Source: a virus
Taxonomy: Duplodnaviria > Caudoviricetes
Direction: 5' to 3' (one strand)
IMG/VR virus record: IMGVR_UViG_3300023179_008764
Span: 1 to 54,972 of that record
DNA length: 54,972 nucleotides
Shown here: in pieces, positions 15,229 through 44,925 of the stretch
How positions within the stretch are numbered: position 1 is the stretch's first letter
Layout: every line of letters starts with the position of its first letter
Program-made: the position numbers and the translations under genes
The notes under the pieces: model-generated
Database searches by the model: none
Seen by the model: only the letters and a program-made list of their open reading frames with translations
What the model was told of the DNA's origin: nothing

Positions 15229-16734
15229 TTAGAAGTAGACCGATTGAGTGCCAGGCGTAAACGCAACACCGAGACCGGTCAAGATAATAACGTGGTAGTA
15301 AAGATTAGCACCAAAGATGTTATCTACAACTCCATAACGAGTTAATAGACCAACACGAGGAGCAAAATCATTAGGACCAATTGTTCTCTGGACCATTACC
15401 GGAATATACGGACAATAGATGATACCAGTGTCGTAGAATTCCGGACCCTTGTAACCAAGGAGAGCGTATTCGAGGCGAGATGTACGAGTTGTTCCGGCGG
15501 GGAACCCACCTGAACCGCCGTAGTTTCCTCCGGCGTTAGCTTCGTACTGAGCCTCTGTACGTGTGTCACGGTAAACGTTGAAACGGCCACCAATTGAGCC
15601 TACTTTTGCGACACCAACTGGCTGAGTGTTAACGTTGCCCTGGACTGGTACCCACTGAAACTCAGGGAGCATTTCCAGGATGGCGCAAACGCGAGGTGTA
15701 GCAACGATAAAGTTGGCAGCACCACGGCGATTACGAACAGCAATTCTGTTAGCCTCAACAATTAGTCTCTGATAGAAGTCGCGGTTGCGCTCTACGAGCC
15801 AGCGACCGTCTGCTGAAGCGGGCGACCAGACTGAGAAGCCTGTGCCAAGTCCAGCATTAAGGGCTGTCTGGATCATTCGGATGATCATTTCACGGTCGAT
15901 TTCGGCCTGCAACTCATATGACATAGCATTGGTGAGTTCGGTGTCGATATCGATTCCGTTCATGTTCTTAAGATCCTGTTCGAGTTCTACTGACCAACGA
16001 GCAGCGAGCCTACGAGTACCAGCTTCAACAGCTGTCTTCTCGAAGGATACAACTACCTGAGGGATCTTAGAAGATAACTCGAAGTTAGCTAAGAGCTGAG
16101 CAACGCCTCGGTCTTGTTCAGGTATTGCGAATGAAGCGTTACCAACTAGTGCATCTGATGATGTACCTGTGTAACGAGTATCCAAATACTGATAACCGAG
16201 TTCTGCGCCTGAAGACTGAGCCTGAGGACCACCAGCGGGGGTACCAGCGGCTAGAGAGCCGTCAGAACCTTTATCATTGGTTGAACCAAGCGATGTGCCT
16301 TCGTATCTATAACGGAGGGCAAAAGCAAGACCTACGGGACCGCTCATGGGCTGAACACCAACGATTTCGTTAGTGATCAACTCAGGGAACGTACGGCGGA
16401 TCATCGGAATGAGAATCTTGGGTAGACGTGTGTCGTTAGGAGCGTAAGCATTATCATTCTGTGAGGGGAACTGATTTCCATAAGCACCGACATTGGGCGA
16501 ACCAACGCCTGTGGCATTGAAAACAGAGCTTGAACCTCCAGCAATATTGCTAGCTTCGAAACACCACTTCTCTTGGTTTTCCAAAAGAATGGCGGTGTTT
16601 AAACGAGTGTGGTCATCTTCGATAGCGCGAACATTGTTCGATGTGTAATCCAATACTGGACCCCACTTTTCGAGCAATACTCTTGCGCGTGACTCATCGA
16701 TGTAAGCCTGTGTAGGACGAATTTGTTTTGACAT
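15229..16734 (-). CDS. gp23: Major capsid protein (T4 gp23 family)
   Basis: LLEKWGPVL, ILLENQ, GVQPMSGPVGLAFALR, ELEQDLKNMNGID, YCPYIP, TRYG. Confidence 0.97.
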   Translation of the reverse strand: MSKQIRPTQAYIDESRARVLLEKWGPVLDYTSNNVRAIEDDHTRLNTAILLENQEKWCFEASNIAGGSSSVFNATGVGSPNVGAYGNQFPSQNDNAYAPNDTRLPKILIPMIRRTFPELITNEIVGVQPMSGPVGLAFALRYRYEGTSLGSTNDKGSDGSLAAGTPAGGPQAQSSGAELGYQYLDTRYTGTSSDALVGNASFAIPEQDRGVAQLLANFELSSKIPQVVVSFEKTAVEAGTRRLAARWSVELEQDLKNMNGIDIDTELTNAMSYELQAEIDREMIIRMIQTALNAGLGTGFSVWSPASADGRWLVERNRDFYQRLIVEANRIAVRNRRGAANFIVATPRVCAILEMLPEFQWVPVQGNVNTQPVGVAKVGSIGGRFNVYRDTRTEAQYEANAGGNYGGSGGFPAGTTRTSRLEYALLGYKGPEFYDTGIIYCPYIPVMVQRTIGPNDFAPRVGLLTRYGVVDNIFGANLYYHVIILTGLGVAFTPGTQSVYF

Positions 16735-17906: not shown

Positions 17907-18578
17907 TTATGCAGTTTTAAGAAAATTAAAGAAGCTAACAATTTGCTCCTTAAGGTATGATTGTAAATGCTTTACCGGTAGATTCTTTAATGAATTTTCA
18001 AAATTAGTATAAATTTCCTCTAGCTTACCGTTTTGGTTTAATACAAACTGTTTGCTTTCTAGAATACCATTTACAAAAGCAGATGGGCACGATGGATCAG
18101 CTACGCAATCTATAGCAATAAGGCGCATGTCTGTGACTCTATTAACACCACCAGCATCTTCATTGAGCTTACCTAAAGCTCTGCTAGACATTCCAACTTT
18201 AACTCCATCGTTGATAAGAGAACGTACAATCTGACCCATAGGAGTAGATAGCACTTGCGATTTACCCATTACATGATTACCTTCAAACTTTAAATCCGTT
18301 ACCATATGGCAGGCGCGCTCTAAATTAACTTCTGCAGAAGTAGGGTGATTTAACTCTCCCATAGCTCTCTGTGTTCTTACCATTTCTTTAATATATCTAC
18401 CTACTTCGCGTTGCATGTCATCGCGTTCATAAATACGTTGGTTTTTATTTACTTCATTACAAACCATATAAGGGCCTTTAATAAAAAGACGAGCTGGCTC
18501 TTTAGGATTTTTTTCCTCTAGAATATATTCAAATTGTTCCTGAGGTGCAGGTGTTTCGACTAATAGACTAAGCGCCAT
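17907..18578 (-). CDS. gp21: Prohead protease (gp21; start moved to ATG 18578)
   Basis: NKNQRIY, GELNHP, GMSSRALG, DCVADPS; TATAAATA-N5-ATG. Confidence 0.95.
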   Translation of the reverse strand: MALSLLVETPAPQEQFEYILEEKNPKEPARLFIKGPYMVCNEVNKNQRIYERDDMQREVGRYIKEMVRTQRAMGELNHPTSAEVNLERACHMVTDLKFEGNHVMGKSQVLSTPMGQIVRSLINDGVKVGMSSRALGKLNEDAGGVNRVTDMRLIAIDCVADPSCPSAFVNGILESKQFVLNQNGKLEEIYTNFENSLKNLPVKHLQSYLKEQIVSFFNFLKTA

Positions 18579-18601
18579 ATTATTATTTATATTCAAAGCT
18601 A

Positions 18602-19186: not shown

Positions 19187-19645
19187 CTACCTACTTATAC
19201 CCAGTTCTTTTTCAGTCAAGATAAGAAAAGAATAGTTCCTTTGCTCACACCATTTTTTTGCTGCTGCCCATTTGGCTTGATTTTGTACATATCTAGCGCT
19301 TTCATATACTAGTGTAGAGTGTTTTTTCTTACCTGCAACCGGTTTTTGAACTTGAGTACTAGGTTTTATTTCAACTACAAATTTTTTAATTGTTCCATTA
19401 TCATTTAAAGCTATTACCCCGTCTGTAAAATATCTATGTACTTTGCCATCGACCGGGTTGACGTATGGTATTATTATTGATTCACTGGCCCATTCTACAA
19501 TTTTAGGATTATCGTCACACCATCTAAAAAATTTTAGCTCCCATCCAGATCTGTAAATAGGTGTACCTCTGCCTACATACTTTGCTGTATTTTTGGGTTT
19601 AAAGATACCCTGTCTAAATTTATCTGATTTATTTAAAGGAATCAT
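19187..19645 (-). CDS. gp4: Head completion nuclease (gp4-like, TnsA-N fold)
   Basis: FKPKNTAKY, YRSGWELKFFRWCD, WASE, VEIKP, NQAKWAAA. Confidence 0.92.
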   Translation of the reverse strand: MIPLNKSDKFRQGIFKPKNTAKYVGRGTPIYRSGWELKFFRWCDDNPKIVEWASESIIIPYVNPVDGKVHRYFTDGVIALNDNGTIKKFVVEIKPSTQVQKPVAGKKKHSTLVYESARYVQNQAKWAAAKKWCEQRNYSFLILTEKELGISR

Positions 19646-20724
19646 TAGCCAACAAAGAATTGAGGCGGCGCACCGTCTCCAAAGCCTGTAGAGCCGCCTT
19701 GAAAAAGCTTCTCTTCTAGCGCTTTCTTTTCTTCTAGTCCTTGTGAAAGTAAATCATTAAAATTAATTTGACCACCTCCAAACATTGTTGTACCTGTGTA
19801 TTTTCCTCTAACATTACCTATTGCGATTTTACACAATGCGAGAGCGTATTGATAGACCCAAGGCTCTTTAATTAAATCACGTAAAGGTCTTTCTACATAA
19901 CAAGAAACTACACCATAAAATTTTGATCCCGAACCTGGAGTACGAGGAGGTGGATAAAAATTCATATATTGCGTGCGGTCATCAAAGGTAATATATCTTC
20001 TGGTTGCGAGTAATTTTTCTCTTACTTTTAGCCAGTCTTTTAAAACATACCAACTTATTAAGTCAAATCCATAATTACCCATAGCGTAACTAAAATATGT
20101 TTGCTGCGCTAATGTTTGCTCAATAGTAAAGAGAGTATTAACACCTGTAGACGAACCTTCTTCAAAATCGATTACATCTATAACTTTTCTATAGTCCATA
20201 ATATCATAATCAAAGCTATTAACTATTTTTTGAGTACTATTAGAAGAAGGAGCAAAATATTGTGCTAAAACACCATTGAAGTTTATTACACTAAGATAAT
20301 TTGTTTCAGTTAAAATTTGATTTTGAAAAATACCATCTTTATAGGTTGATGAAAGTGCTTGAGATGTAGAAAATGCAGTTGCGGGTAATGAAGAATTAGC
20401 TACATAAACTGTTTTAGATGGTATATTGGTTTTATTAAAATTAGGTGTGATGCTGAATAATTCGTCTAGCTTAACGCCTTTACCATCTATATAGAGGTCG
20501 GAATCAAATACTAAATACTCTTCTGTATAACCAGCATATTTTGCGAACATTTCACATGCTATTGAAATATTTTCAAATAATTGATCATGATGTATTTCTA
20601 GATTTAAAAGTGGCGCTCCCATAGAGCGAACAATTCTATCTCCTAATCTTTTAAATGAATCTATTTTACTATTAAGATTAGTACTCTGAAACGCTGTAAT
20701 CGGTGTTATTTCTGTACAATCCAT
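19645..20724 (-). CDS. gp13: Neck protein (gp13-like)
   Basis: RSMGAPLLNLEI, WVYQYALALCK, RGKY, PPQFFVG. Confidence 0.85.
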   Translation of the reverse strand: MDCTEITPITAFQSTNLNSKIDSFKRLGDRIVRSMGAPLLNLEIHHDQLFENISIACEMFAKYAGYTEEYLVFDSDLYIDGKGVKLDELFSITPNFNKTNIPSKTVYVANSSLPATAFSTSQALSSTYKDGIFQNQILTETNYLSVINFNGVLAQYFAPSSNSTQKIVNSFDYDIMDYRKVIDVIDFEEGSSTGVNTLFTIEQTLAQQTYFSYAMGNYGFDLISWYVLKDWLKVREKLLATRRYITFDDRTQYMNFYPPPRTPGSGSKFYGVVSCYVERPLRDLIKEPWVYQYALALCKIAIGNVRGKYTGTTMFGGGQINFNDLLSQGLEEKKALEEKLFQGGSTGFGDGAPPQFFVG

Positions 20725-20739
20725 ATAGGTATTTATGCA

Positions 20740-22539
20740 TTACTGTGTTGGAGCTGCGCTGCCTGCAGGGGCTCCTCCACCAGCTGCAGGAGCGGCTCCG
20801 CCTGCTGCTCCACCAGCTTCTGCACCCCCAGCTTCACCGCCAGCACCGCCTGGAGCAGGTCCAAATGCAGGGGGTATAGCTGATCCGCCACCACCACCAG
20901 CGCCTGCAGCGGGTTCAGCACCAGTTTCACCTGGAGTTACAGCGCCTACTTCACGCCAGTTAGGACCGTTATTAGTAATTTGATCTAATTCCCAAAGCAT
21001 TTCTCTATCTTTTCTTAAAAACTCTCTATTAGCCATTAAATCAGAATCAGACCAACCTAGATATTTCTTTTGTGCAAAAGTCTTAGAAACAAGATCGCTT
21101 TGAGTAATACTATTAAAGTTCTCTGCTTTAATTTGAAACTTTTGATTTTCTCTTAACTCGTAAAAGTTTGTAGGTACATTAAAATGCAAATCTAAATGTT
21201 GCTCTTTAAGATGCATATCTTCCCAAATCTTTTTAAGCTTAAGGTGTGTAATAAACCCATTCTTAAGACCGCATGCAAATTTTTGCTGTAGTCTAATAAT
21301 AAAACGTGCAAATTTTAGTTCTTCTCTAAGAATATCGGTACCGTCTCTAAAAGCATCATTTTCGTCAAGTCTTGTTGTAGGTACCTTTAAAGCCTTATAA
21401 AGCTTTTTAACGAAATACATTAAGTCAGTTAACTCGCCAAGATTTGCTCCACCTTGAAGCTGATCTACAGTAGTACCTTCTGACCCAGCACGCTTTGCAA
21501 ACCAAAAGCTATCTAACATGCTTTGAGGGTTAAACTTTTGTACTGTAGCGGCTTGACTGTCGTCATATGTACGGCGTGACCAATAATTGTTCATTAATTT
21601 TCTAAGATATGCTTCAGCTTTAGGCGGTGACATATTACCAACATCAACGTTAAAAACTAGACGCTCAGGGGCTCTAACTAATCTATAAATTACAATAGCG
21701 TCTTCAATAAGAGATAATTGACGGTAAGCTCTCCTAGCATTTTCAATAAAGGGTAATCTTAAAGTTTTATTTTCATTCCATATACCAGAATTAATATATG
21801 TTACTTGATTTGTGTCCATCGGAATCATTTCTATTTTAACAACCTTACCCGGGGTCTTAGGATCGTAAACATTCTTTCTTAGTAAATAGCCCCTTACAAT
21901 TTGATTTTGTACATTCTCAAAAATTGGATCGATTATATCTGTAGGTATAGTTACTACACCTAAAATTCCTTCCTCAGGATATTTTTTATGTATAATATGC
22001 TCCCAATAAAGCTCTGCATCAACTAACAATTGTCTTAAATATTCCCAGCCTTTATTTTCTAAATCAAAGAAATTAATATACTTTTGAAATTCTTTTTTAA
22101 GCTTTTCTTTTTGTTCTTCCGATAGATTTGATTCTTTAAATTTTAATTTAACAATCTCATTATTATCGTCTTTGTTAATAAATTCATCACAAATTTCATC
22201 TAGTGCGTCTGATACTTCTGAAAATGCAGCCATTACTCTATAGTCCATTAACCTTCTGCCCTTATCGGGCTGAATGTTAGCATACATAAAGTTATGATAA
22301 TCTTTATTTTGAATTACATTTGCATAAAGATCGTCAGTAAACAATAAGGATGATGAAATCGATTGTCTTGATAAGGCTTCTTCTCTGTGTGTACCTTTAT
22401 CAAAAAATTCCTCGTATTTTGGATTAAGTTTATTAATTTTATCTTCAATTCCAATAGATTGGTATGGTAATTTAGATGAAATAAATTTCATTAAATCTCT
22501 ACCAAACGTACTCTCTCTATTTGGATCTTGTTCGGGCAT
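20740..22539 (-). CDS. gp20: Portal protein (gp20) with Gly/Ala/Pro-rich C-terminal tail
   Basis: QLSLIEDAIVIYRLVRAPERLVFNVDVGNM, YFVKKLYKALKVP, REELKF. Confidence 0.97.
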   Translation of the reverse strand: MPEQDPNRESTFGRDLMKFISSKLPYQSIGIEDKINKLNPKYEEFFDKGTHREEALSRQSISSSLLFTDDLYANVIQNKDYHNFMYANIQPDKGRRLMDYRVMAAFSEVSDALDEICDEFINKDDNNEIVKLKFKESNLSEEQKEKLKKEFQKYINFFDLENKGWEYLRQLLVDAELYWEHIIHKKYPEEGILGVVTIPTDIIDPIFENVQNQIVRGYLLRKNVYDPKTPGKVVKIEMIPMDTNQVTYINSGIWNENKTLRLPFIENARRAYRQLSLIEDAIVIYRLVRAPERLVFNVDVGNMSPPKAEAYLRKLMNNYWSRRTYDDSQAATVQKFNPQSMLDSFWFAKRAGSEGTTVDQLQGGANLGELTDLMYFVKKLYKALKVPTTRLDENDAFRDGTDILREELKFARFIIRLQQKFACGLKNGFITHLKLKKIWEDMHLKEQHLDLHFNVPTNFYELRENQKFQIKAENFNSITQSDLVSKTFAQKKYLGWSDSDLMANREFLRKDREMLWELDQITNNGPNWREVGAVTPGETGAEPAAGAGGGGGSAIPPAFGPAPGGAGGEAGGAEAGGAAGGAAPAAGGGAPAGSAAPTQ

Positions 22540-22591: not shown

Positions 22592-23392
22592 TTAATAGAT
22601 ATAGTTACTCCCAGTAAATGTGGGGTTACCTGATATGGACACTACTTCTGTTTCATTGACTAATCCTGTGCTTATAGGATATACTATAGTCGAAGATAAA
22701 TCGTCATATGTTGTAATGTTTGCTTCAGTATGAAAATTGGCATCTATCTGATAAATATTGCCAACAGGAGCTTCTACAGCAGGGAATAACCATCCTTTAA
22801 TAACGAATCCTGTATCACCTACTATTCTATACTTTTCATTTGCTTGTAATTCAACAGGATACGATAGATTAATATTTCCGTCCCATAATACTTCACTTCT
22901 TATTTCTTGTAAAGCGGTATAGTTAGGGTTTAATAGACCGAGCGGTATTTTCCAAGATAGAATTATATAAGGATTGCTGTAAGGAACAAAATTAGATATT
23001 ATTTGATCCATATCCGTTTGAAACTTGGTAATTATAGACATAGCTATGCCAATATTAACAGGAATAGGTGTTCTATAAAATTGTGATACATTTCTAGCAT
23101 CGTTGTCAGAAAGACCCTTAGAAATATAAAAACCTGCTAGTTTATTAAAAACTCGAGATTCATCTCTAGCTACGCTTGTAATGTTAATAGCAACTGCAGG
23201 AACAGTTATGTTTTGAGCTTTATTGACCAAATCATACAAAACTCTTTGCTTTGGTGCGTATACATATCTAACTTGTACTTTGTTTTGTGATACTCTGTTC
23301 TTATCATATCTTTTAATAATAATATCATCAAACGCAGCTGTAAACTGCGTTATTAAATCTTTTATTTCAAAATGATAAGTCTCTTTTCTCAC
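22592..23392 (-). CDS. gp15: Tail terminator / sheath stabilizer (gp15-like)
   Basis: FTAAFDDIIIKR, VRYVYAPKQR, DMDQIISNFVPY, IKGWLF. Confidence 0.8.
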   Translation of the reverse strand: MRKETYHFEIKDLITQFTAAFDDIIIKRYDKNRVSQNKVQVRYVYAPKQRVLYDLVNKAQNITVPAVAINITSVARDESRVFNKLAGFYISKGLSDNDARNVSQFYRTPIPVNIGIAMSIITKFQTDMDQIISNFVPYSNPYIILSWKIPLGLLNPNYTALQEIRSEVLWDGNINLSYPVELQANEKYRIVGDTGFVIKGWLFPAVEAPVGNIYQIDANFHTEANITTYDDLSSTIVYPISTGLVNETEVVSISGNPTFTGSNYIY

Positions 23393-31024: not shown

Positions 31025-31762
31025 ATGGCAATTAATACTACAAACAGTAATTTCGTTAATATAAACAGCCTTCCGCAAACGCAAGAAGCTATGGATGGTG
31101 ATTTATTAATTATTCAAACGGAAAACGGTACGCAAACAATAGACTTTACTAATTTAAATGTTGTAAAGACTGATGCAGCTGGTAATGCTACTATTGTAGG
31201 CAACTTAACTGGAAATAATGCTAAATTTGAAACACTTACAGCTAGTGTTGTAGGTGGTTCATCATTTTCTGCGAATAGTAAAGAGGGGTTTACAGCAGTT
31301 CAAGGTTATTATAATTTTTTTACTGTAGAAGCTGGTATTGTTACTAGCGCAGTTCAGACAACCCCTTCCCCGGAATATACTAATTTAACTAGTACATTTC
31401 TACCGGCTATGACAAGCTGGCAAAATTCTGTTTATAAAAGAATAGTAGATTACAATAGTTATATTACAGTTTTAGCAGGTGAAACCTACGCTACAGTAAG
31501 TATACCAAATTTTTACGTTACATACCCCGATGTAGGTGATACTGATCTTAAAATGTGGCATGTAATAATATTTTGTAATAACCCGCTACTTTACAACAAC
31601 ACAACAAGCCCTATCTCTGGATTACCTTATGCATCGGCTGAAGATAGCGCAGTAAACACCACATTAACAAAAGACGGAAGCAATCTTAATTTTAGACTTA
31701 ATACAGGCGTTAAGGTACCGCAAAATACAGCATTTTACTACCGAATACTTTACACTTATTGA
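31025..31762 (+). CDS. Late structural protein (tail/fibre-associated)
   Basis: TATAAATA-N6-ATG; NINSLP..DGDLLIIQ N-terminus; Thr/Asn-rich beta-type composition. Confidence 0.55.
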   Translation: MAINTTNSNFVNINSLPQTQEAMDGDLLIIQTENGTQTIDFTNLNVVKTDAAGNATIVGNLTGNNAKFETLTASVVGGSSFSANSKEGFTAVQGYYNFFTVEAGIVTSAVQTTPSPEYTNLTSTFLPAMTSWQNSVYKRIVDYNSYITVLAGETYATVSIPNFYVTYPDVGDTDLKMWHVIIFCNNPLLYNNTTSPISGLPYASAEDSAVNTTLTKDGSNLNFRLNTGVKVPQNTAFYYRILYTY

Positions 31763-31971
31763 ACGTGAAATAAAAGAGCTTTATTAATACGAGCTAAAGC
31801 TTTACGAGGATGATGACCTTCATCAATTAACCTTTTATATTCGTTTTTAAAAGCTTTTACAAAATCTTCAGATAATTTAAAATTTTTTGGATAAAATTCT
31901 CTTTTTACTGTACGAATACTTCTAAAATTTTCTAGTAATGATTCGTACTTTTTGTTAAAGTCTGCCTTCAT
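31756..31971 (-). CDS. Small late protein (start moved to ATG 31971)
   Basis: TAAATA-N5-ATG; MKADFNKKYESLLE leader. Confidence 0.6.
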   Translation of the reverse strand: MKADFNKKYESLLENFRSIRTVKREFYPKNFKLSEDFVKAFKNEYKRLIDEGHHPRKALARINKALLFHVQ

Positions 31972-43816: not shown

Positions 43817-44236
43817 TTAATTTTGTTCAAGAAATTTTTTAGGCGGTCGACCGATCCTAACATTTATAATACCATTATAATAGTCATTTCTTAATAAGAC
43901 GTTTCTTTCTATCTGCTCTGAAATTTCAAAATAGGCTAATTCCCACTTAGACTCGCATGTCTTTAGAATTTTAAAAATAAATTTATCTTTACCAAACTTT
44001 AAAATATCTTCGTTTAATTCTGTTGAAGAGCTAGTGTATTCCTTCCAATCCGACTCTTTAATTTCTATTCTTTTATTTTTTTTACCCTTTAACGGCTTTC
44101 TTTTAAGCTTAGATTTGCATTGTTTTTTACCAATATATTTTTTTCCGTTAACCGTATTTGTTATTTCGTAAATAAAACCAAAAGTATTTTCTGTCATTTT
44201 GACAGATTCATTTAATATCCAATGTCCTGTTTCCAC
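43817..44236 (-). CDS. Stand-alone GIY-YIG nuclease
   Basis: GFIYEITNTVNGKKYIGKK, WKEYTSSS, YYN; TAAATA-N5-GTG. Confidence 0.85.
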   Translation of the reverse strand: METGHWILNESVKMTENTFGFIYEITNTVNGKKYIGKKQCKSKLKRKPLKGKKNKRIEIKESDWKEYTSSSTELNEDILKFGKDKFIFKILKTCESKWELAYFEISEQIERNVLLRNDYYNGIINVRIGRPPKKFLEQN

Positions 44237-44248
44237 AGAACTATTTAG

Positions 44249-44506
44249 TTATAGTCCTAAACCTGGCAAAGGCCTTCTTTGTATTTTTATTTTTTCTTTT
44301 TTCTTTTTTTTGCCTACGCCTAGCATTTTTGGCAATCTTGTGTCATTAGGAGCATAAGCTTGATCATTTTGAGAAGGAAACTGATTACCATGCGAACCAG
44401 CTGAGCCACCTTGACCTACACCAAAAACGCTCGCTGGACCCCCGGAAACCATATCTTCTTGCAATACTTTATAGTATGCCTGTTCAAATAACCCCATTGA
44501 TTTCAT
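44249..44506 (-). CDS. Small protein containing a copy of the capsid N-arm peptide and a Lys-rich tail
   Basis: GNQFPSQNDQAYAPNDTRLPK matches gp23 at 20/21 residues; TAAATA at 44522-44527. Confidence 0.8.
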   Translation of the reverse strand: MKSMGLFEQAYYKVLQEDMVSGGPASVFGVGQGGSAGSHGNQFPSQNDQAYAPNDTRLPKMLGVGKKKKKEKIKIQRRPLPGLGL

Positions 44507-44532
44507 AATAAGTTATACTATTATTTAATTTA

Positions 44533-44925
44533 ATGATACTAGAAGATTACATAAAAGAGCTAGAAAATGACTTAAAAATTGATGAGCTTAATTTAAAAGA
44601 TTATCAATTAAGATTACCTGGCATCAAGCATAAATGGGCTGGTAGGTGTATAAGACATAAATTAGATCTTATTGAAGTAAAGCGCGAAAAAGAAAATCTT
44701 AAGAAAACTCTAGCTGATAAGCTTCAAGAGCAAAGCCCAGTAAAAATTGCAACACCGGTTGCCGAAAGAACAGCTGAAAAACACGCAGAAGTTATTAAGC
44801 TTGACGATAAAATTAAACAACTCGAATTAGTTGTAGAACTGTTAGAAAAAGCCGAAAAAACTTTAAGCTCTACATCATATGATATAAAAAATCTCGTTGA
44901 TATTATTAAGCTAGAAACCACATGA
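44533..44925 (+). CDS. uvsY: Recombination mediator (UvsY-like)
   Basis: DLKIDELNL..PGIKHKW...YDIKNLVD; directly upstream of uvsW. Confidence 0.75.
   Translation: MILEDYIKELENDLKIDELNLKDYQLRLPGIKHKWAGRCIRHKLDLIEVKREKENLKKTLADKLQEQSPVKIATPVAERTAEKHAEVIKLDDKIKQLELVVELLEKAEKTLSSTSYDIKNLVDIIKLETT

Follow-up and report, generated by a model that had tools for sequence, protein, structure and literature searches.

Why should a tailed phage carry, far from the gene for its major capsid protein (MCP), a second and much smaller gene that repeats the N-terminal part of that protein? The question is raised by the IMG/VR virus record IMGVR_UViG_3300023179_008764 (Duplodnaviria; Caudoviricetes), whose positions 1 to 54,972 were analyzed here as one stretch of 54,972 nucleotides, called the window below. 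A small open reading frame (ORF) at 44249..44506 on the minus strand, with an ATG start and its stop codon at 44249-44251, encodes 85 amino acids (aa). The MCP gene, a member of the gp23 family, lies 27.5 kb away at 15229..16734, also on the minus strand (501 aa; Pfam Gp23, E 1.2e-87). The original prediction, made from the letters alone, had claimed a near-identity between a short segment of each protein, and this was confirmed at both places: between 44327-44389 and 16417-16479, 20 of 21 residues are identical, and 48 of 63 bases agree. Residues 40-60 of the small ORF are the counterpart of MCP residues 86-106. At the 20 identical residues, the two genes use the same codon nine times and a different codon 11 times, and my recount gave the figure predicted. 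When the whole small ORF was compared with the MCP by BLASTP, 34/66 identities were found with an E value of 4e-17, because of which the likeness far exceeds chance. The best explanation of these sequences appears to be that the small ORF is a functional late gene of an uncultured AT-rich 'far-T4' myovirus, encoding a mini-version of its own MCP N-terminus, and that it would correspond, among far-T4 phages, to gene 61.1 of T4 and to a small gene of a cyanophage.

How far does the copy reach? The homology spans MCP residues ~53-119, from the last part of the propeptide through the maturation Glu into the N-fist/N-arm. It sets in no later than the Glu in front of the mature MCP N-terminus, and in 3 of 13 genomes the local alignment extends upstream into a K-F/W-C motif. 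In the window MCP, the copied segment (residues 45-119; 16378..16602, minus strand) comprises the last propeptide helix, the maturation Glu60, the N-fist, and the N-arm. The alignment is broken by a Lys-rich insertion of ~10 residues on the ORF side, after which the homology picks up again, and the terminal R-R-P-L-P-G-L of the small ORF pairs with R-R-T-F-P-E-L of the MCP (residues 113-119). Thus, the similarity that had been traced upstream to the Glu is real, but its extent had been understated, as it continues past the Lys run to the end of the ORF. What had been taken for a basic tail is an insert within the arm copy. The Pfam Gp23 match on the MCP extends from residue 106 to residue 475, so that nearly the whole copied segment lies ahead of it, and the small ORF ends where this shell domain is just starting. 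A Pfam scan of the small ORF detected no domain, Gp23 PF07068 (the HK97-type shell fold) included, and a PHROG search gave no match at E <= 1e-3.

The small protein can be read as four consecutive parts, all on the minus strand. Residues 1-17 (44456..44506) form an amphipathic leader that ends with L-Q-E, a putative prohead-targeting propeptide with a protease site. The hydrophobic moment of this leader is 0.378, compared with a shuffle mean of 0.198, and 4.5% of the shuffles reach 0.378. Residues 18-63 (44318..44455) are the copy of the MCP N-fist/N-arm, starting with a variable Gly-rich part and leading into a G-N-Q-F-P-S-Q-N-D...R-L-P-K core. Residues 64-75 (44282..44317) form the Lys-rich linker that is inserted relative to the MCP and leaves a 10-residue alignment gap. 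The Q-R-R-P-L-P-G-L end (residues 76-85; 44252..44281) is a copy of I-R-R-T-F-P-E-L of the MCP (residues 112-119).

These parts recur throughout the family. The leaders are 10-21 residues long (median 14). Of 148 distinct members, 138 carry [LIVMFC]-x-E at the leader end, the position of the maturation cut in the MCP, and 107 have Leu at P3. Among the ten exceptions, several show A-L-E or Y-N-E or are shortened gene calls. The leaders of the family have the build of a capsid-targeting sequence (CTS), defined as ~10-20 residues ending with L/I-x-Glu (PMC9026906). The arm copy opens with (D/M/N)-(M/N)-V-A-G-G. The Lys/Arg-rich linker, which could be delimited in 129 members, has 7-39 residues (median 12) with a median K+R content of 57%. 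The C-terminal end reads Q-R-R-x-x-P-G-L, with R77 and R78 nearly invariant to invariant in 38 diverse members. The predicted mature peptide (residues 18-85, ~68 aa) has 11 basic and 4 acidic residues and a net charge of about +7. Cleavage after the Glu, as had been proposed for this ORF, is plausible in view of the conserved hydrophobic-x-Glu and of a T4 counterpart with an internal-protein leader (see below).

Is the small ORF a real gene? When the small ORF and its surroundings were used to search the INPHARED phage set at the DNA and protein levels, nothing was found, and the window MCP shares at most ~34% identity with MCPs of cultured phages. Relatives were therefore taken from IMG/VR and from metagenome proteins. 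A single-sequence search yielded 17 protein clusters with 60-93% identity, every one 84-89 aa long, and when a profile of the family was built from 38 diverse sequences, it matched 310 clusters (39-168-aa proteins; E <= 1e-3). The sole informative source name in the family is 'hypothetical protein UFOVP760_185'. In IMG/VR, at least 598 relatives of the MCP were found. In the ten longest of 80 MCP-relative records (62-230 kb), the MCP is accompanied by a separate, intact small ORF in 10 of 10 cases, so that the ORF is neither absent nor frameshifted in relatives, a finding on which the original prediction had staked itself. Altogether, 54 distinct nucleotide versions were collected, and the 48 complete ORFs among them are all intact and 76-96 aa long. 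The ratio of nonsynonymous to synonymous substitutions (dN/dS; Nei-Gojobori), which had also been named as a check, has a median of 0.30 and does not exceed 1 in any of the 256 usable pairs (0.05 < dS < 1.5, out of 1128 pairs); the closest informative pairs give 0-0.18. The corresponding ratio of the proportions of differences (pN/pS) is lowest in core residues 40-63, at 0.32 versus 0.49-0.62 in the rest of the small ORF. The small ORF is a real gene.

Rare fused forms of 177-198 aa were also observed (P0123-P0126; for example, L005:6010-6603, plus strand). They keep the leader, the arm copy, the Lys run, and the Q-R-R, and carry an extra C-terminal domain of ~115 aa after the Q-R-R. A Pfam scan of the fused form P0123 gave only a sub-threshold match to DUF6745 (E 0.023; 14.4 bits, with a cut-off of 27). 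Locus L005 does not have the usual uvsY and GIY-YIG neighbors described below.

Does the copy evolve together with the MCP arm? In 13 genomes holding both genes, each ORF was compared with the arm-coding part of its own MCP gene. In 13 of 13, the synonymous sites are saturated (pS 0.68-1.05), with pN at 0.18-0.42. At identical residues, 5-16 of 18-34 codons per genome are shared, and the nucleotide identity is 45-68%. On the evidence of these alignments, recent gene conversion between the ORF and the MCP gene is excluded because the synonymous sites are saturated in all 13 genomes, and the likeness is evidently kept at the protein level. Together with the median dN/dS given above, this bears out the proposal that selection acts on the peptide and that no recent DNA duplication is involved. 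Conservation is high along most of the MCP but lowest at residues ~59-100, where almost no column is invariant. In the 13 x 13 matrix of own-versus-other scores, the diagonal sums to 1578 versus 1243 expected, and only 3 of 100,000 permutations reach it (p 3e-5). The own MCP ranks first for four and second for three of the 13 ORFs. The clearest case is genome G008, whose MCP arm is without G-N-Q-F-P-S-Q-N-D; its ORF reaches a score of 154 with the arm of the same genome, compared with 33-64 for the other 12. When small proteins of T4-like phages, cyanophages, and far-T4 phages were scored against MCP arms, the within-clade mean was 76.9 (n=35; most cells 62-154), while the between-clade mean was 28.2 (n=46; maximum 39). 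In the divergent lineages (G007, G008, and G009) and at the clade level, the copy evidently follows its own MCP.

When may the gene be expressed? The original prediction had noted a late-type TAAATA, and it is indeed present. The conserved TAAATA-ATAGTATA element (44514..44527, minus strand) lies within the 26-nt gap to uvsY, and its TAAATA (44522-44527, minus strand) stands 15 nt before the ATG. Across the family, 40 distinct upstream sequences were compared, and TAAATA precedes the ATG by 1-28 nt (median 15) in 39 of them, mostly as TAAATA-ATAGTATA; the background is 3.8% of random 45-mers at the 32% G+C of the window. TAAATA is also found 3-15 nt before the portal, tail-tube, and neck genes and a dozen other genes of the window. 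The starts without it include uvsY, uvsW, and the gp47/gp46-like genes. The element adjoins the uvsY start on the opposite strand and could serve uvsY instead. I read TAAATA as the late-promoter class of the far-T4 clade, and the small ORF thus as a late gene; I take the motif to resemble the T4 late-promoter consensus. As a separate observation, no Shine-Dalgarno-like sequence lies between TAAATA and the start codons (for example, those of 20740-22539, 22592-23392, and 19645-20724). If TAAATA is a late promoter, the late mRNAs of the portal, tube, neck, and other genes would be nearly leaderless.

Is there a counterpart in cultured phages? The T4 genome was searched with gp23 residues 40-125, and one match besides gp23 was found, namely gene 61.1, whose product gp61.1 (NP_049649.1, 54 aa) is annotated as 'hypothetical protein'. 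Beyond its tenth residue, gp61.1 aligns with gp23 residues 57-93 (17/37 identities, E 6e-9), and it has a Lys-rich stretch at the end. It starts with M-K-T-F-K-E-F-I-K-E, which matches M-K-T-Y-Q-E-F-I-A-E of the internal proteins IPII and IPIII in 7 of 10 residues, while IPI starts with M-K-T-F-K-E-F. The first ten residues look like a genuine targeting leader with an I-x-E processing site. Thus, gp61.1 and the window ORF share the same build: a leader ending with hydrophobic-x-Glu, a copy of the N-terminus of the phage's own MCP, and a basic stretch. An E-D-M-V-(A/S)-G junction is common to both small proteins and occurs in neither MCP. They differ in that gp61.1 is shorter and copies only the N-fist, whereas the window ORF copies the arm up to R-R-x-x-P-x-L.

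Relatives of gp61.1 were found by tblastn in 1432 phage records. The protein matches phrog_1823 (3e-33), and its long forms are in phrog_2086, both families being labeled 'unknown function'; some records name the 61.1-like gene 'major capsid (domain-containing) protein'. In the long forms of Acinetobacter phage KARL-1 (L187:265-741), Citrobacter phage Miller (L188:286-786), Aeromonas phage CC2 (L189:346-753), and Vibrio phage QD01 (L190:283-762), the 61.1-like module is the C-terminal third of a 135-166-aa protein and follows hydrophobic-x-Glu. A conserved domain of ~105 aa (phrog_2086 / phrog_18642) was observed ahead of this module. T4 appears to have replaced that domain with the 10-residue leader of an internal protein. 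Pfam scans of the long T4-like forms and of the cyanophage S-SCSM1 ORF detected no domain. In the PDB, there is no entry with a gp61.1 chain, gp61.1 matching only gp23 residues 58-94, and no relative of the window family.

A cyanophage counterpart is ORF97 of S-SCSM1 (SSCSM1_97), a 74-codon frame near the primase gene, in which an I-R-E site is followed by a copy of the arm of the phage's own MCP. The ORF belongs to phrog_3286 and phrog_696, with relatives in 288 cyanophage records. GenBank (MK867354.2 / QFG06354.1) names its product 'virion protein' and RefSeq 'major head protein'. According to the S-SCSM1 paper, mass spectrometry identified 45 proteins in the virion, and 13 of these have no known function (PMC9602691). 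As in the far-T4 ORF, the arm copy follows a hydrophobic-x-Glu-type site, here with G-P-T-A-G-(Y/F)-D-P and (Q/I)-R-R. Unlike the window ORF, ORF97 has no clear Lys run, and its arm is unrelated to the far-T4 arm (cross-clade scores <= 39 versus 83 on its own MCP). A junction of the form E-(D/x)-M-(V/I)-A-G is common to the three groups of small proteins and absent from their MCPs. This sharing favors common descent of the T4-like, cyanophage, and far-T4 small proteins over repeated partial duplications, although the profile match between the window family and gp61.1 is weak (see below). The prediction that no equivalent had been described does not stand as worded: T4 gene 61.1 (phrog_1823/2086) and the cyanophage homologs, which have the same build, are already catalogued, with their function undescribed.

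In the searchable literature, gp61.1 was met only as an entry in gene tables, and Nolan et al. (PMC1524935) list 61.1 among the conserved T4-like ORFs without known function. No link between 61.1 and a capsid-targeting sequence was found among the papers listed; the subscription-journal literature on T4 and the supplements lie outside that search, so a prior mention is possible. Within the same limits, the kind of gene is already catalogued, while a description of its build and function was not found.

What might the protein do? The copied segment corresponds to residues 66-105 of T4 gp23, and the T4 head is informative here. According to the T4 head literature (PMC9546572, PMC9958956, PMC9026906), the protease gp21 takes 65 residues off gp23. 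In the accounts of the unexpanded head, residues 66-105 of the cleaved protein, gp23*, are disordered, point into the head, and probably contact the scaffolding core (PMC9546572, PMC9958956); the head-length mutations A66D, A94V, and G97S fall within them (PMC9546572). Upon head expansion, the segment is described as shifting to the outside, where it becomes an extended N-arm and a 25-residue N-fist that contacts four subunits and helps form the Soc site (PMC9546572, PMC9958956). In the structures of gp23* (5VF3, 6UZC, 7VS5, and others), this N-fist/N-arm, the very segment that is copied, is a covalent part of the shell subunit, whereas the window ORF would provide it as a separate polypeptide with an inserted Lys linker. 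T4 internal proteins are reported to enter the prohead via a 10-residue capsid-targeting sequence that is then removed by gp21, which cuts after L/I-X-E; the 10-residue leader is said to be enough for packaging (PMC9026906). The window encodes a gp21-like prohead maturation protease at 17907..18596 on the minus strand (phrog_207 head maturation protease, E 7e-59), presumably the processing enzyme.

By analogy, I lean towards the product of the small ORF being a prohead-targeted protein that is cut by the gp21-like protease, although I do so with little more than even confidence. The leader would bring the protein into the assembling prohead, like the capsid-targeting sequences of the T4 internal proteins. 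Cleavage after the Glu by the gp21-like protease would coincide with that of the MCP and set free a basic peptide of ~68 residues. The arm-like segments of the peptide could then engage the partners of the MCP arm, which in T4 are the scaffolding core and, after expansion, the neighboring subunits. The Lys linker may face DNA or an acidic scaffold, and the R-R-x-x-P-x-L end would correspond to the motif that leads, in the MCP, into the folded shell domain. The mature peptide might fill empty arm or fist sites at the portal or the vertices, compete for the scaffolding core, or bind DNA. Each of the three complete related genomes (G007, G008, and G009) has only one full-length Gp23-family gene, and a gp24-type vertex paralog was not detected with PF07068 in any of the three; presumably, either the MCP itself or an unrecognized protein makes up their vertices. 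Complex prediction with the full MCP and the full ORF gave no verdict (score 0.00 in both runs, partner pLDDT <50) and is used neither for nor against binding.

The comparison with known small head proteins of T4 is instructive. Like the window ORF, IPI, IPII, and IPIII have an N-terminal leader ending with hydrophobic-x-Glu and basic mature parts, and their leaders are reported to be removed by gp21 (PMC9026906). The internal proteins are described as variable accessory genes (PMC3012670, PMC9026906). Their mature parts are unrelated to the MCP, whereas the small-ORF family is core-like and copies the MCP arm. The prohead components gp67 and gp68, which are described as being cut by gp21 and involved in head shape (PMC9958956, PMC9026906), resemble the window ORF in size (gp67 has 80 aa). 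BLASTP of the window ORF against gp67 gave no significant similarity (E 0.058 over 12 residues). The gp67 tail is acidic, whereas the stretch in the window ORF is basic, and the gp67 gene lies between the portal and protease genes. Aside from this, T4 gp67 (L184:3782-4024) and gp23 (L184:5946-7511) show a faint local likeness at the gp21 sites, which is not significant (11/28, E 0.6).

Several observations weigh against an MCP-following, prohead-targeted protein with counterparts in T4 and cyanophages. Fine-scale tracking is not seen in the core far-T4 group, where the own MCP ranks 5th-10th for 6 of the 13 ORFs; the arm motif of that group is nearly invariant. Among six T4-like phages there is no own-versus-other excess either, as 467 of 720 permutations reach the diagonal. 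The claim that the motif tracks the cognate gp23 thus stands for G007, G008, and G009 and at the clade level, but not within the core group or among the six T4-like phages. The link to gp61.1 is weak in direct comparison: the window family matches gp61.1 with an hhalign E of 6.6e-4, a probability of 27%, and only 18 columns, BLASTP of the window ORF against gp61.1 gives E 2.0, and the window ORF does not match phrog_1823, the family of gp61.1. The gene neighborhoods also differ by clade. The 61.1 gene adjoins the primase gene (gp61) in T4-like phages, with the order uvsW, 61.1-like gene, and primase in QD01, and the S-SCSM1 gene is near the primase gene too, whereas the window ORF adjoins uvsY. 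In T4, no TATAAATA was found within 120 nt upstream of 61.1, and because of this the timing of 61.1 may be early or middle. As for cyanophages, 'virion protein' is only a product name in the ORF97 record; the annotated ORF97 start is the Met just after the Glu, so that the leader is omitted; and Syn1, one of the two cyanophages tested, has no second match to its own MCP arm. Finally, the MCPs of the core group have C-F-E or C-M-E, not L/I-x-E, at their own presumed site.

Other explanations were weighed against the prohead-targeted protein. The product might be a transient regulator of assembly that competes with the MCP N-terminus for the scaffolding core or the protease, as a pseudo-substrate or timer, and is then degraded or lost via the capsomer pores. 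The copied segment is the one that in T4 contacts the core and carries A66D, A94V, and G97S (PMC9546572), the copy extends to either side of the cleavage site, and T4 gp67 and gp68 are described as being cut and mostly leaving the head (PMC9026906, PMC9958956). I nevertheless regard such a regulator as rather unlikely: gp21 reportedly needs only the short L/I-X-E (PMC9026906), so that mimicry over ~60 residues exceeds what a pseudo-substrate needs, the conserved Lys-rich linker would be left unexplained, and the S-SCSM1 counterpart bears the record name 'virion protein'. A free arm copy could alternatively be a decoy that binds, in place of the MCP, a host defense sensor of new capsid protein. 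The part of the MCP that it imitates is the most variable one and in T4 is described as reaching the capsid surface (PMC9958956), the copy follows the MCP where the arm diverged, and T4 61.1, which lies in a cluster of replication genes and has no late promoter close by, could be expressed before gp23. However, the gene is core-like, occurring in all ten long far-T4 records and in 1432 T4-like and 288 cyanophage records with unrelated hosts, it has fixed synteny and a late-type upstream motif in far-T4 phages, and a cytoplasmic decoy needs neither a targeting leader nor a protease site. A decoy is therefore quite improbable in my judgment.

Two further explanations treat the ORF as DNA more than as protein. 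A silent donor cassette would lend its partial copy to gene conversion and so diversify the MCP arm; being a partial copy of a variable MCP region, with concerted evolution in G008, the ORF invites the thought, but an identity of 45-68% with saturated synonymous sites is too low for homologous exchange. In addition, a start, a leader, a Lys linker, and an upstream motif of its own have been retained in the ORF, and purifying selection acts on its protein. The chance of this is very small. Smaller still, and barely worth entertaining, is that of a non-functional relic, an MCP fragment left by recombination or carried by the neighboring GIY-YIG homing endonuclease. The ORF does adjoin a SegE-type GIY-YIG gene, but a relic is contradicted by the conservation of the ORF (48 of 48 complete ORFs intact at 76-96 aa, dN/dS <1, 310 clusters), and the GIY-YIG neighbor is fixed in 47 of 50 loci and not a sporadic insertion. 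Hitch-hiking with a homing endonuclease was rejected on the same ground. An RNA-level or antisense role was also rejected, since the small ORF shares its strand with the MCP gene and the two transcripts cannot pair.

A bolder version of the prohead-targeted protein can be put forward, although it is speculative and I would not expect it to hold in full. All major branches of the T4 superfamily may keep an ancient, separate copy of the N-fist/N-arm that co-evolves with the MCP, is loaded into the prohead and cut, and fills empty acceptor sites at symmetry mismatches (the portal, and the vertices where there is no gp24 paralog), with its Lys linker on the DNA. If this is true, T4 gp61.1 would be an overlooked structural component of the head. 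T4 head assembly is among the best-studied virus assembly pathways, and yet 61.1 and its relatives are conserved hypotheticals or are mislabeled 'major capsid protein' by automatic annotation. What is recognized here is that the family joins a leader with apparent prohead-targeting and protease-site features to a copy of the flexible N-terminus of the MCP. The hypothesis can be tested directly in T4, where the protein would be either a new head component or an assembly factor that uses capsid-arm contacts. The build (leader, hydrophobic-x-Glu, copy of the own MCP arm, basic stretch) also offers an annotation signature for hundreds of genes of metagenomic and cultured phages.

The surroundings of the small ORF in the window consist of the GIY-YIG gene, uvsY, uvsW, and gp47/gp46-like genes. 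Directly downstream lies the SegE-type GIY-YIG domain gene (43817..44236, minus strand; PF19835, E 1.3e-30), and the divergent neighbor is uvsY (44533..44925, plus strand; PF11056, E 8e-7). Neighbors within 800 nt were identified by phmmer in 50 distinct loci, each flanked by 500 nt or more on both sides: uvsY is divergently upstream of the small ORF in 49 of 50, and the SegE-type GIY-YIG gene is downstream on the same strand in 47 of 50. The GIY-YIG protein has 139 aa and consists of the nuclease domain only; a separate TAAATA stands 5 nt ahead of its start codon. It is not a sporadic homing endonuclease here and may be a domesticated nuclease.

Two other ORFs deserve mention. In the complete 225-kb genome G009, a second short Pfam Gp23 match was found at G009:C1:69563-69727 (plus strand; profile positions 142-196, E 9.5e-15). 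The open frame that holds it, 98 aa long and distant from the MCP gene, may be another free-standing gene for an MCP fragment. In the window itself, a basic 71-aa ORF at 31756-31971 (minus strand), for which the scans detected no Pfam or PHROG family, has a leader, M-K-x-x-F-N-K-x-Y-x-x-L-L-E, resembling the leaders of the small-ORF family. A TAAATAATAGT element, as at the small ORF, abuts its ATG, and the ORF is a candidate for a second leader-bearing head protein.

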